Source: Octopus vulgaris (taxonomy: Eukaryota). Taken from it: a stretch of DNA of 64,000 bases. Of the stretch, positions 16,075-43,533 are shown piece by piece; positions within the stretch are counted from its first letter, which is position 1; each line of letters opens with the position of its first letter. Below the pieces are notes generated by a model. The model searched no databases and was not told where the DNA came from. It saw only the letters and a list, made by a program, of their open reading frames with translations. The stretch covers positions 40,486,001-40,550,000 of the forward strand of contig OX597819.1 of the NCBI GenBank assembly GCA_951406725.2. Direction: 5' to 3'. A program made the translations under genes and the position numbers.

Positions 16075-17126
16075 ATGGACTTTAAGTCCCCGCAGAAACA
16101 CAAAAGAACCACAACACAGGATTTTAATCGGAAGGATGGGCTAAAAAAAGATGATGATGATGGAGTTTTGGCCGCCACGGCAGCAACAGCCCCGTGTTTT
16201 GTGTGTGGGGCACAGGCGGCGGAGCAGTATATTGACAGTAAGTCGACAAATAACATAAATAGACCTACAGATGTTAAGATTCAGACAAAAAGTTTTTGTT
16301 CCGCATGTAGGAATTTTTACCAGCATAGTACCTTAGGAGATGCACACTTAACTTATGTCTGTATTACTCAGAGTCAGATTAACAGACGTATATCATTGAG
16401 GAATTCCAATTTGTTGACTTCGAAATCACCAGTTTCTGGATTATGTGTTATCAAAACAGATATTGTAAATAAATGCCGTGCTTGTTGGTATCTCAAATGC
16501 ATCTCTTTTGGACTCAATGAAGCTTTGGAAATCGCGAATGTTAACCAATCTAAACATCAGAAAGACAGACCTCCGAATACCAACAATAACAACAAAGATC
16601 CCAGTGATGATATAATTCGGAACAAAAACGATTCATGTTCGTCAGAAAAGGAATCCAAGAATCCAAATTTATCTGCCTCGTCAAATGAAAGTTCAAGTGT
16701 AGATGTGGCAACCAAGAATAAACAGACACAACGCCAGCAATATCAGCCCGTTCGTTCAGACTCTTCCGAGAAAACGGCTATCTCTCAATCAAAACCGAAA
16801 CTATCTACAATGCAAAAGCAACTCGCAGGATCGACTCAAATGGATAATTCTCACACTACTAAAAGCTCAATCCAAGGAAATGGGCCGTCGGTGTCTACAG
16901 TATCATCCGGAGTAGCCTCTTTGCAACTCGCACAAGGGAAGTCGTTAAAAGTTTTTAATCAACAACAGAAATCAGTGAAACAATTAAAACCAATTGCTCG
17001 AACTCAAGGGATAACAAAAACTACCGCAGTTCAACCTCAAACAAAAACGTCTGTTTCCAATCAGACGAAAAGTTCGGTTACGAGAGAGATTACCAATAAT
17101 CCTGTTTCCTCAAAGGAATCACAAAA
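16075..17126 (+). CDS. Coding exon 1 of a multi-DBD nuclear-receptor-like gene; contains degenerate DBD1 (16195-16515) with insertions in both fingers
   Basis: ATG at 16075. Motifs CFVC...CSACRNFY...C...C...CRACWYLKCISFGL. Donor AA|gtaagc at 17127 (phase 2), matching the phase of the next exon. An upstream non-coding exon cannot be excluded. Confidence 0.82.
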
Positions 17127-19545
17127 GTAAGCCTTTAAATGTAATTTTTACTCTGCATCCCTCTTTAAACACCCGCATACATACATATACAGACACGCAG
17201 ACATATGTACACACCCAAAATTCCTTTATTACAACAATTATAGCAGTAAACTAATGAGAGAAATATTGCCTAGACAACAAGACAACGTGGTCGTTCGGTC
17301 TATTCGAATTAGCAGCCAAGTTTCCACATGCTACCGTCATAAATAGGGATATAGTATGTTAGAAAATGTATTGCTATACATCTCCAAAAAGATGAGATAG
17401 TCTCGACTGGATTACTTTTTAACCACAAATCTATTTTTCTGCAATGATCCGGAATTAAGTAACAACTAAGGCCAAAATATACTTACTTGCATTACTGAGG
17501 AAATTAAAGGATGCTTTGACCATTTAATTTCATCATATATCAAAAACTGATTTTAATTCTCTTTATTCTCGAATTTTAATTTCACTAATACATACACACA
17601 TATATTGCCACCATGAGTTATGGTACTCAAAGGTGCTTATTTTCTCCTTCTTTTCCCACGGATAGCACTCAGATTTATTACACCCAACATTCCCCCAAAT
17701 TTCTATTTCACATTAATAGGATACTCGTTTTAAGTTTACAACTAAATGATACACACACACACATAGGGCTCGCTAGAAATAGCAGTCAGATCTCCCGCAA
17801 ATCACACTCTACCGTCTTAAAGAATACACTTAGACAATGTAGTCTTTCATATATAAAATATGTGGGATGCCCACAGCTAGAATGTCTTTAATCATAGGTC
17901 TGTGTTGTCGGGGATGACCTAGTATTAAACAACAATATTCTCTACTATAACGATCCTGCAATAGCATCTATAATATCAAAGTGTCATCGAGTGAATCCCT
18001 TTTCAAATCACACCGTACTGTGACACTTTAGACAATATAGGTCCTACATATTCTCTGAAACGATAAGATTGTACGACAGATGTGTTTTTGATCATAGGCC
18101 TGCCAGGTCAGGGTAGCTTCATGGTTGAACAATAAGAAGTACATGCTTATTCAAAGGCCTCAGCAGAGATCTACATTGAAGTTCATTTAGTTAAACCTGA
18201 CTTGAGCATTCAGTCATAGTTATATTAAGTTATAGTTGCTGTTAGCATGTAAAACACTGGATCACCGTTGATTTCAATGATACGTATCTAGTTGTTCAAT
18301 CAATTGAACTACCAGCTCCTTGGTTTAGCATGTAAGTGGCTGAGTATTCTACAGATCCGTGTATCCTCAATGTAATTACAGGAACGATCAATCTAATGGT
18401 CTTCTGCTCGCTGCGAGTTTGAACTTGAGGCTTCATGGTTGTGAACTTACAACATTTAAACTAATTAATCGGATTTGCAATTCAGAGATGTCAGCTGTTC
18501 TTTGTTTACAGTCCACTACTAAAGCGTGTCTCCGGCGTATTGGCATGTCTTGACATGTGAGTACTGGACACAGATGTCATTATTTCATACAAACGGTGTC
18601 ATTAGTTTGCAGTCCTTAGCAAATTCATGTCCAGATTGTTAGTTGTTGATTAGAATAGGGGAGGAAAGGCATTTGGTCTGGCAAAATTCTGTTTCAGCAA
18701 AGTCTTATCTGACCTATGCAAGCATGGAAAAGTAGACATAAAAATGATGATGACGATGATAACAAGAATGATGTATATATGATGAGCTCTCATACAGTTT
18801 CTGTTTACCAGTTCTACTCACAACATTGGTTGACCTAAAGGTACAGTAGAAGACATTTTCCGAAGGTGCTAAACATTGGGATAAAACCCAAAACTGCATG
18901 ATAATAATAATAATGATAAAGCAAACTCTGCATCCTCACAGACATGCCTGTACCTATTATTTATGGTTGGCATTAGGAAGGGCATCCAGCCATAGAAACC
19001 ATGTCAAAGCAGACAGTGGAGCCTGGTGCTGCTTGCCAGCTTCTGTCACACTGTCCAACCCAGCCAGCATGGAAGACAGATGTTAAATGATGATGATATA
19101 TGTGTGTGCATTTGTGTAAATTAGTGTATTGTTCTATGCTCCTCAAAATGTAGCTTATCTATTTGATTCATCATCATCGTTTAACGTCCGCTTTCCATGC
19201 TAGCATGGGTTGGACGGTTCAACTGGGGTCTGGGAAGCCAGAAGGCTGCACCAGGCCCAGTCTGATCTGGTAGTGTTTCTACAGCTGGATGCCCTTCCTA
19301 ACGCCAACCACTCCGTGAGTGTAGTGGGTGCTTTTTATGTGCCACCGGCACAGGTGCCAGATGAGGCTGGCAACGGCCACAATCGGATGGTGCTTTTTAC
19401 GTGCCACTGGCATGGAGGCCAGACGAGGCTGGTGAATAAAATAATGCCAGGATGAAATAGATGTTAGATTTGATATGATTTACCAAAAAATTCTTGAAGT
19501 AGTTTCTTAGTTATTAAAGTCACTAAAAGGAAAAGAAAACATCCA

Positions 19546-19587
<42 letters not shown>

Positions 19588-20969
19588 CCTACCTTTTATA
19601 AGCTAGATTATCAAATTTTTATGATAAATCAGGCAAATTTGGAGTTTTTATCATTTAAGTTTACTTCGTTTTAGCTGCAGTAACTACATGCATAAGTAAG
19701 TTGCAGTCACCACATCATTGGATGCAAGCTGTTTAATCTATCACACAATCAAAAAGTGCAGGTGACCTACAGTGTAGCACCAAACTGAAAGCACAGCACA
19801 ATTTGATCTGATACCTTTGTGCCATGCATCTATAAAAATGCTAAACAAAATTATATTGGGACATGATTTGGAGAGAGTTATCAAAACATCAATTCATTTT
19901 CTCCCTTTCATTTCTGAAATAAAACTAAACAATTTTTCTGACTTCCATCACCGCCACTTAATGTCCATGTTGGTATGTGTTAGACAGTTTAACAGGATCC
20001 AATGGGTCCAAGGACTGCATCGTGCTCCAGTGTCTGCTTTGACATGGTTTCTATAGCCAGGTACCCTTCCTAATGCCATTCACTTGTACTGAGTGCTTTT
20101 TCTTGTACCACCAGCATTAAATAATTTTAGCTGAAAATGGTCTCTATTCTGCTAGGTGATACTAACTTTTAAAATTATTCTTAAATTGCAAACAGATGTC
20201 ATAGCATTAGACCTAAATCTAAAGTGTCACATGTCTACAATACAGCATGCAAATATCTCAGCAATAGGTTGTGTGGTTTCAGGTTCAGTCCCACTACATA
20301 GCATCTTGGGCAACTGTTGTCTACCATAGTTCTGTGCCACCTATGCGTTTTCAGTAAATTTGATAGATGGAAATTGATGACAGCTTCTTGTATATGTGTG
20401 TGTATGTGTGCATATGCACATGAATAGTGACATTCTATGATGTCACTTGTTACTGTCTGAGTGAAATGGTGATATGATGTTTACATTCCTTGTTGACATC
20501 ATAAACCAGTCACTCTACACTTTTGAAGATGAGGAGAAATCAAGAATTCTCTTACTTGAGAAAAACATTTGGTGACCGGGAAGAGCATCTGGCCATAAAA
20601 CTCTGTCTCAAATAAGCCCCTGCTCAACCCATGCTTGCATGGAAAAACACTCATTGAACAAATGAAACACCTTAACATTAAAATGCCCTGCATGCAAATC
20701 TCAACTGTAAAATGTCTGCAGCTTGTGTATACTCATTAATGAAATACTGCTTGCACCACCTCAACATATGCTGCACATACACACTTCAACATTAACATAT
20801 TTTGTTAAGGTTATATACACATCTTAACAATAAAATGGGACCCATACACTTAAGAAGCACAGGCATGGCTGTTTGGTTAAGTTTCCATCTTACATAGTTT
20901 CTATATCATTCCCATTTGTGTGGCACACTGATGTTGATGATGATGAATTCCAATATTTTAAATCTAGGT

Positions 20970-42539: not shown

Positions 42540-43022
42540 AATAGATGAACATCAATGGAATTTGTATCTTTGTGGTACCAGTGCCGGTGGCACACAAGAA
42601 AACCATCCGAACGTGGCCGTAGCCAGTACCGCATCGACTGGCCTCCGTGCTGTGGGCACATAACAAACACCATCCGATCGTGGCCGTTCGCCAGCCTCAT
42701 CTGGCACCTGTGTCGGTGGCACATAAAAACACCATCCGAGCGTGGCCGTCTGCCAGCCTCGTCTGGCACCTGTGTCGGTGGCACATAAAAAACACCATCC
42801 GAGCGTGGCCGTTCGCCAGTCTCGTCTGGCACCTGTGTCGGTGGCACATAAAATCACCCACTACACTCTCGGAGTGGTTGGCGTTAGGAAGGGCATCCAG
42901 CTGTAGAAACACTGCCAGATCTGACTGGCCTGGTGCAGCCTTCGGGCTCCCCAGACCCCAGTTGAACCGTCCAACCCATGCTAGCATGGAAAACGGACGC
43001 TAAATGATGATGATGATGATGA
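42540..43022 (+). repeat. Young copy of the (GAT)n-tailed repeat with 4-5 tandem units of about 60 bp
   Basis: Unit ggtggcacataaaaacaccatccgagcgtggccgttcgccagcctcgtctggcacctgtgtc repeated at 42580-42860. Confidence 0.85.
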
Positions 43023-43092
43023 AAACAAGTAAACTATCTCTATGATTATGTGTATCAACAATTTTATTATTTTCTTTCTTTTTTTCTTTTAG

Positions 43093-43533
43093 CACCACAA
43101 ATAACTATGAAAAGAAGAAGCTTTTATGTAACCCACGTCACTTTCCGTGTAAAGTTTGTGGAGATCTTGCATCTGGTATACATTATGGCCACTTCATTTG
43201 TGAAGGCTGTAAAGGATTTTTCCGTCGTAGCATACGCAAGAAAATGGTTTATTTGTGCATTAGCAAAAATTGTATAATCAATAAGTTCACAAGGACTCGT
43301 TGTGCCTACTGTAGGCTACAAAAATGTTTGACTCTTGGCATGTCAAAAGAAGCCAGTCGAAAGGGCCGGCGAACAAAGGAAAACCAAATGAAACTAATGA
43401 GCCAACCCCGTGAAGAATGCAAAATGTATGAGGAGTACACAAATCTAAACTCTGCACCTAGACCATGGTCCAATAACACAATACCACAGAGGGAACCAGT
43501 AGAATATATTGAAGATGCTGATCAACCTAAAAT
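43093..43533 (+). CDS. Coding exon 6, canonical DBD14 (43148-43342) with C-terminal extension
   Basis: Long polypyrimidine acceptor ttttag|C (phase 2). [32 protein letters not shown]...[24 protein letters not shown]. Ends at AT|gtaagt, either a donor or read-through to TAA at 43535-43537. Confidence 0.92.

Follow-up and report, generated by a model that had tools for sequence, protein, structure and literature searches.

Nuclear receptors are defined by a DNA-binding domain (DBD) together with a ligand pocket, and the exceptions that have been described lose one of these parts or double the DBD. For example, receptors of the NR0A/knirps type have a DBD but no ligand-binding domain (LBD). Here we analyze a stretch of 64,000 nucleotides (nt) from Octopus vulgaris (assembly GCA_951406725.2, contig OX597819.1, positions 40,486,001 to 40,550,000 of the forward strand, called C6 below, in a genome of 2.8 Gb; "the window"). 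It contains the array-coding exons of a gene in which the DBD has been multiplied to 14 and a metabolic enzyme, selenocysteine lyase (SCLY), replaces the pocket.

The typical nuclear receptor (NR) shares the two-finger C4 DBD (PF00105) with the octopus protein, but the octopus protein has no C-terminal LBD (PF00104). DBD-only receptors, which are shown as a class in a review of receptors with two DBDs (2DBD-NRs) (PMC10497141), also lack the LBD. However, the NR0A/knirps type has one DBD and no enzyme. Like the array protein, 2DBD-NRs have more than one NR DBD per chain, with EGCKGFFRR in the last one (PMC10497141). But they combine two DBDs with one LBD, as opposed to 14 DBDs with none. The spacer between their DBDs is 17-22 amino acids (aa); in the array, the DBD13-DBD14 spacer is of this length (18 aa by profile bounds) but is interrupted by an intron, and the twelve others are 32-702 aa. 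Their two P-boxes form the module EACKK-EGCKG or LPCKS-EGCKK, whereas DBD13 has RSCRN and DBD14 has EGCKG (PMC10497141). Given the DBD count, the P-P module, and the LBD, we rejected the idea that the array is a 2DBD-NR; 2DBD-type rows also form their own branches in both of our trees (72 columns).

On the enzyme side, the short isoform of the octopus gene is an ordinary member of the selenocysteine lyases, and the long isoform adds a 3,762-aa N-terminal array. As a class V enzyme, SCLY belongs to the same fold type I as the C-terminal domain of the bacterial MocR/GabR regulators. These regulators likewise have an N-terminal DBD, a linker, and a C-terminal domain that resembles aminotransferases dependent on pyridoxal phosphate (PLP), and they are dimeric (PMC6917764, PMC4944035). 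But they have a single DBD, of the winged helix-turn-helix type, and a domain like aspartate aminotransferase, while the octopus protein has 14 DBDs made of NR zinc fingers and a class V lyase. The GntR winged helix-turn-helix is absent from the long octopus protein (Pfam, E-values up to 1). The likeness to MocR/GabR is one of independent origin, not of membership.

An array of 14 DNA-binding domains

The array is encoded on the plus strand by six exons (16075-17126, 26909-35749, 37748-38105, 38728-39053, 41515-41784, and 43093-43533), separated by GT..AG introns of 9,782, 1,998, 622, 2,461, and 1,308 nt. An earlier note on this window, made from the DNA letters alone, had proposed these six exons, and translation of the joined exons confirms them: they total 11,288 nt and encode 3,762 aa with no stops, and the intron phases from the exon lengths are 2,2,0,2,2. 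In a six-frame translation, a 2,990-codon open frame (26781-35750) holds nine NR-type finger pairs, four smaller open frames hold one pair each, and the frame at 16045-17127 holds one degenerate pair. Pfam gives the same picture: zf-C4 (PF00105) matches fall across the exons as 1+9+1+1+1+1 = 14 stretches, with no match to PF00104. The count of 14 in the earlier note stands if degenerate domains are included. Thirteen are full two-finger domains, and DBD1 (about 16195-16500) is degenerate, with long insertions and a score just below the cut-off (E = 5.8e-4, 20.7 bits versus 21.1), and with cysteines at 8 of the 8 expected ligand positions.

Coding exon 1 of the long isoform begins at the start codon at 16075, and its N terminus is also found in the gene models P0002, P0003, and P0012 and is recognizable in P0133 from Sepia. 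Exon 2 (8,841 nt) contains DBD2 to DBD10, as zf-C4 matches at 26958-27173, 27372-27587, 28941-29159, 29400-29627, 30873-31088, 33195-33410, 34077-34292, 34827-35042, and 35361-35576. Exons 3, 4, and 5 contain the matches for DBD11, DBD12, and DBD13, and exon 6 contains DBD14 (43142-43354) and a 60-aa linker. None of the array's DBDs has an intron inside the domain. The protein differs from O. vulgaris CAI9724069.1 at 1 position in 3,526 aa and from O. sinensis XP_029638073.2 at 24 positions.

The O. vulgaris model P0001 has an 11-codon first exon (5990-6022) that is joined into the middle of DBD1, and it omits a 318-nt serine-rich stretch of exon 2 (28014-28331). P0002 and P0003 share neither oddity, and both are probably prediction artefacts, or possibly isoforms. 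Also, an acceptor-like AG lies at 16043-16044, 30 nt 5' of the start codon, and therefore an upstream non-coding exon and promoter are implied.

The array is spliced onto selenocysteine lyase

The earlier note followed the frame as far as 43533, which is not the end of the gene, and it missed the protein's most unusual feature, a complete selenocysteine lyase at the C terminus. The base after 43533 begins a phase-2 GTAAGT donor, and the frame continues by splicing onto SCLY exon 2, beyond the window. The intervening intron is 32,560 nt, of which the first 20.5 kb are in the window (43534-64000, plus strand). The 12 shared SCLY exons follow on the plus strand at G000:C6:40,562,094-40,580,929 (equivalent to window positions 76,094-94,929). 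These exons (1,264 nt, with GT..AG introns) reproduce the lyase tail of P0001 exactly, and together with the six exons in the window they encode 4,183 aa with a single terminal stop.

An alternative first coding exon, for the short SCLY, lies inside this intron on the plus strand (59058-59134, 77 nt). Like exon 6, it ends in phase 2 with a GTAAGT donor. Joined to the same 12 exons, it gives an ordinary SCLY of 446 aa, and its peptide matches the N terminus of the O. bimaculoides SCLY P0005 at 24 of 26 aa.

When we searched with exon 2 and scored 7,997 candidates, the sole match had 4,009 aa, with PF00105 and PF00266, and its last 421 aa are a selenocysteine lyase. A search of the genome for SCLY gave 11 matches, of which 10 are exons starting 12 kb beyond the end of the window and one is a weak match on C5. 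The C terminus of the long isoform is a class V PLP domain whose best match is SCLY, not NFS1, and it aligns over its full length to the solved SCLY structures (PDB 3a9x and 3gzc; E = 4e-122). The equivalents of Asp146 (the selenocysteine-specific aspartate), Val256, Cys388, and His389 are intact, as is the motif of the PLP lysine, and EHDS, VGHKF, and ACHS line up with the enzymes of rat and human (specificity and catalytic positions from PMC3266270 and PMC6770646). With E-values up to 1, Pfam finds zf-C4, Aminotran_5, and Beta_elim_lyase in the long protein and nothing else. For the Argonauta protein P0007, the ESM Atlas gave nothing that scored at least 0.9.

We also looked for an LBD, either downstream or as a remnant, and found none in 124 kb. 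PF00104 is absent from P0001 and P0003, and none of its 27 matches in the genome are on C6. A custom profile built from 76 LBD-bearing C termini matched none of 4,023 open reading frames in the 124 kb, while both of two control RAR exons scored.

The junction in other cephalopods

We are highly confident that the fusion is a real and conserved chimera. The junction of DBD14, linker, and SCLY is present in gene models from O. vulgaris (P0001), O. sinensis (P0003), Argonauta (P0007), and Sepia (P0177). Among 6,932 candidates, a search with the region from DBD13 to the lyase found 19 proteins: 14 are lyases only, 3 are ordinary receptors, and 2 have both domains. One of the latter two is P0007, from Argonauta hians (DBD11-14 plus the lyase). 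The other is the Logan protein P0157, which comes from a contig of 2,578 bases and covers the tail of exon 4, DBD13, DBD14, and the whole lyase. The matching stretch spans about 56 kb in the octopus, so this contig is intron-free and spliced; a retrocopy is the less likely alternative. The lyase of P0157 is 86-87% identical to that of Sepia and 63-67% identical to those of octopods. A second Logan protein with the junction, P0176, is from a 2,967-base contig and begins in the linker of exon 6. Logan P0158 has the same lyase as P0176 over the first 300 aa but has the N terminus of the short form, so both the long and the short forms are present in cuttlefish-type reads. P0157 and P0176 are from read assemblies of the squid/cuttlefish type. 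Cluster look-up identified Sepia pharaonis CAE1274831.1 (2,152 aa, DBD7-14 plus the lyase), and a single Sepia contig carries this protein, a short SCLY (CAE1274833.1), and a piece with DBD1-2 (CAE1274829.1).

Because the junction is common to octopods, Sepia, and squid/cuttlefish-type assemblies, sequence comparison indicates that the fusion is older than the octopus-cuttlefish split, which is dated to either the Late Carboniferous or the Permian (PMC5360930). Its retention ever since makes the arrangement a candidate coleoid novelty. The earlier note had proposed that orthologues be sought in other cephalopods and molluscs. They were found in Argonauta, Sepia, O. sinensis, and the squid/cuttlefish-type assemblies, but the named SCLYs from non-cephalopod molluscs (9 cluster representatives, 329-422 aa) are all unfused. 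This suggests, weakly because these are representatives, the Sepia fusion itself sat behind a short one, and no sequence was from Nautilus, that the fusion is restricted to coleoids.

Conservation varies greatly along the protein. Between octopus (represented by O. sinensis P0003) and Sepia, the most conserved domain is DBD14 (66/69 identical, or 96%), followed by DBD8 and DBD11 (62/71 each) and DBD10 (61/71). DBD2 (49/71), DBD9 (44/71), and DBD7 (42/71) are more divergent, and the lyase is at 183/279 (66%). The linkers are 22-53% identical. In the Sepia model, DBD12 and DBD13 are wrongly joined, which makes the values there (24/71, 42/72, and 0/53 for the linker) unreliable. The 60-aa linker between DBD14 and the lyase is 47-65% identical, which is above most other linkers. 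In comparison to O. bimaculoides, DBD2 and DBD3 are each identical at 71/71 positions, while the adjoining linkers are 75-91% identical. Thus, the earlier note's description of a strongly conserved cephalopod protein with many DBDs and no LBD, distinct from 2DBD-NRs, holds up, and its domains are conserved well above its linkers. We also note that P0006, a decapodiform-like fragment, has an extra DBD (residues 384-456) between DBD3 and DBD4 that is not in octopus, so the copy number of the array varies.

The domains and the linkers

Among the 13 full DBDs, only DBD14 has the canonical P-box, EGCKG. The P-boxes of DBD2-13 are non-canonical and include PDCVL, PECEV, LNCSV, FPCRS, and RSCRN (DBD13); PECEV and LNCSV are unchanged in decapodiform-type orthologues. 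So it is doubtful that the array resembles a poly-C2H2 protein in the sense of equivalent base-reading fingers, as the earlier note had pictured it. In DBD2-10, tryptophan occurs where receptors have an arginine after the last cysteine, which we take to be a phosphate contact. Also, histidine substitutes for zinc ligand 6 in DBD2 and for zinc ligand 5 in DBD9, and both substitutions are retained in cuttlefish-type orthologues.

The linkers had been described as long and of low complexity. Some are long, but the spacers range from 18 to 702 aa, and within them lie a strongly conserved block and two motifs of the AT-hook-like kind. The block (31809-32216, plus strand) lies between DBD6 and DBD7 in a linker that is 36% identical overall between octopus and Sepia P0177. 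It contains repeated short motifs, with three near-identical segments in P0177. It matches no Pfam family, and its best score in the ESM Atlas is 0.80, with nothing at 0.9 or above. It is a candidate cofactor-binding site. Two RGRP cores on the plus strand (32940-32951 and 33420-33431) are AT-hook-like by motif, not by a profile match. The second is just 3' of DBD7, and Sepia P0177 has one at the same place (residue 605). In total, there are 2 such cores in octopus, 4 in P0177, 1 in P0157, and 0 in the Argonauta fragment. In an AlphaFold model of P0157 (19 alignment rows; mean pLDDT of 61.5), the lyase is mostly confident, while the DBDs and the linker mostly have pLDDT below 50.

Relationships of the domains

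In a 75-row tree, all of the array domains that were included fall in a branch with NR1-type DBDs (support of 98/88). For DBD2, 3, 4, 7, 8, 9, 10, 11, 13, and 14, orthologues at the same array position pair together with starred support, and DBD12 pairs at 87/91. Domain order, like the junction, is conserved between octopods and cuttlefish. Our trees have 72 columns and leave many forks open; DBD1 is out of both trees and DBD5 is out of the second, and among the control rows one is truncated and four are partial. Except for RAR, the other octopus receptors in the tree were named by sequence signatures. The rows for DBD2-13 form a branch (SH-aLRT of 83), and a clade of the whole array has p = 0.47 in the AU test, which neither rejects nor proves it. 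A four-residue D-box is common to 9 of the 13 full DBDs, with DBD14 included in this type (the D-boxes of DBD2 and DBD8 were read by eye), and this fits internal duplication. Overall, these sequences are compatible with the array having arisen once, through internal duplication.

The best solved relatives of DBD14 are the DBDs of RAR (E = 6e-30), and it is identical to RAR-alpha at 50 of 69 positions. But the array is not the octopus RAR (NR1B). A separate RAR-like gene on C8 has LBD exons and groups with RAR-alpha at 99/90, and its DBD is split by an intron, whereas those of the array are intron-free. Array and RAR as one clade is compatible with the AU test (p = 0.40), but the tree does not single out RAR as the parent. 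Among other molluscs, RAR is listed for bivalves, gastropods, and chitons (PMC12965858). Another octopus receptor (L010, G000:C20:8232393-8232599) also has an intron-free DBD and has a short second-finger motif in common with DBD14. The two are identical at 39 of 69 positions, and neither tree puts L010 with the array.

Shorter arrays in other animals

The NR fold as a repeated module, which the earlier note inferred, is real here but is not unique to this gene. When 1.84 billion representatives were searched with a profile, 150 proteins were listed, and among the 156 proteins that we compared, 30 have 3-6 full DBDs. Two of the 30 are coleoid orthologues, which leaves 28 other predicted proteins. 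These include proteins of Caenorhabditis brenneri, the mite Dinothrombium, and the stick insect Bacillus rossius. They have divergent P-boxes too, but they have at most 6 full DBDs. Because their DBDs are just about 28-51% identical to the octopus ones, they look convergent with the octopus array. Aminotran_5 was found in none of the 30 multi-DBD proteins that we scanned, and among the proteins compared, only octopod proteins match SCLY. The list had no representative above 1,796 aa and did not include the octopus proteins. It may therefore lack longer arrays, and it is not established that 14 DBDs is the record.

The proteins with 3-6 DBDs (P0008, P0009-P0011, P0013-P0015, P0017-P0021, P0064, and others) include several with a common C-terminal domain that is unscored by Pfam, and the set may represent an undescribed convergent class. 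P0016 consists of half a second finger repeated in tandem, and P0168 (from Pecten) is two whole receptors head to tail; these look like merged or faulty models.

What the long isoform might do

We propose, with a confidence slightly better than even, that this is a single coleoid locus with two starts, which makes an ordinary lyase and a 4,183-aa chromatin regulator in which the lyase replaces the LBD. The downstream start at 59058 would give the ordinary enzyme. The upstream start would give a nuclear protein whose disordered scaffold carries 14 NR1-type zinc-finger domains, followed by the whole lyase, in the place where a nuclear receptor has its LBD. DBD14, with its conserved C-terminal extension, would bind AGGTCA-type half-sites. 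DBD2-13 would keep the zinc fold, and their swapped base-reading residues might make other DNA contacts or protein contacts, while the AT-hook-like motifs might add binding to the minor groove. SCLY is a homodimer, and it has been seen in nuclei, where its role is unknown (PMC6770646). So the lyase could supply the dimerization that the LBD once gave, either between two long chains or between a long chain and the housekeeping enzyme. In GabR, the aminotransferase-fold domain binds PLP and GABA and controls the N-terminal DBD (PMC6917764), and by analogy, the octopus complex would probably respond to PLP and selenocysteine. That the lyase module is functionally used, as a dimerizer or as a sensor, seems to us somewhat more probable than the opposite. 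A full animal counterpart of GabR/MocR, which senses selenocysteine, pairs with the housekeeping lyase, and reads DNA with 14 individually specialized receptor fingers, is a tentative idea that we would not bet on.

A number of observations weigh against our proposal. The octopus junction is known from the genome and from predicted gene models (the names of P0001 and P0002 were transferred from other annotations), and the junction models of all four species are predictions. P0002 stops at exon 4 by reading through into the intron, Logan P0178 and P0179 end exactly at the donor of exon 6 and read through to a stop, and shorter forms with only DBDs may exist. (PolyA hexamers are present after 5 of the 5 donors that we examined, so they are no evidence for such ends.) The records from outside of octopus are partial, and none spans the whole array and the lyase: Sepia is in pieces (P0133 has DBD1-2 and P0177 has DBD7-14 and SCLY), and these records gave no orthologue of DBD5 or DBD6. 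The O. bimaculoides records are also fragmentary, with SCLY alone (P0004 and P0005) and DBD1-3 alone (P0012). The canonical P-box is missing from 12 of the 13 full DBDs, so that DNA binding by those twelve is unproven. The short isoform uses the lyase exons as well, and their conservation is therefore uninformative about whether the long form makes use of them. And sensing of the MocR type is an analogy only.

Some of these observations would fit another history, in which a gene with many DBDs lost its own 3' end and borrows the SCLY exons as a tolerated tail, while the array does the work. The frame would be retained only because an out-of-frame splice would be degraded. The records include truncated forms, which end at exon 4 or at exon 6, and between octopus and cuttlefish the conservation of DBD14 is far above that of the lyase (96% versus 66%). 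Also, a stop codon soon follows each phase-2 donor on read-through. Yet such a stop offers an easy terminal exon, and nevertheless the donor position and the frame are the same in octopods and cuttlefish. The linker between DBD14 and the lyase is also better conserved than most of the other linkers. We consider this history unlikely, and slightly less likely still is that the array is an address label, which takes a catalytically active lyase to chromatin or to nuclear bodies so that selenocysteine is degraded or selenide is released there, with transcriptional control being secondary. All of the catalytic and specificity residues are intact, and immunofluorescence has shown mammalian SCLY in nuclei (PMC6770646). 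However, the shared exons force these residues to be intact, and one nuclear localization signal would be enough for import; 14 individually conserved DBDs suggest a regulatory scaffold.

It is very improbable that the array and SCLY are just neighboring genes that were joined by gene predictors or by rare read-through. SCLY does have its own first exon within the 32.6-kb gap, and the separate O. bimaculoides models would fit. But the in-frame junction is present on two intron-free read assemblies, and the identical junction is in the models of four species. Returning to the two-start locus that we favor, the arrangement suggests a gene regulator that is wired to selenium metabolism. It is also a natural system for testing what SCLY does in nuclei, which is an open question of selenium biology (PMC6770646). 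And the twelve non-canonical P-boxes, several of which are conserved in both octopus and cuttlefish, provide a ready collection for learning to what extent a receptor finger can be re-specified.

Previous reports and other features of the window

In the literature that our search could reach, which excluded most subscription papers and supplements, we found no description of a gene with a DBD array and a lyase. A search for selenocysteine lyase along with cephalopods gave one paper, on Aplysia tRNA. In the main text, neither a 2022 cephalopod genome paper (PMC9068888) nor the Sepia officinalis genome paper (PMC13218726) mentions nuclear receptors or selenocysteine, and the 2DBD-NR review mentions neither octopus nor cephalopods (PMC10497141). 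So the gene is present in databases, as "SCLY" or "uncharacterized," but is apparently undescribed. Each of its parts is known, and other animals have shorter DBD arrays; what appears to be new is the architecture of a DBD array plus an enzyme, while its mechanism is unproven.

Elsewhere in the window, 18 other long open reading frames gave one match to Pfam, which was below the cut-off. A weak match to Vir1p at 10315-10683 (E = 0.0025, 16 bits versus a cut-off of 29.5) is likely noise. Within intron 1, the stretch at 20001-24000 has a strongly negative GC skew (-0.34, -0.24) and three open reading frames without a Pfam match, and it is probably made of repeats or a mobile element.

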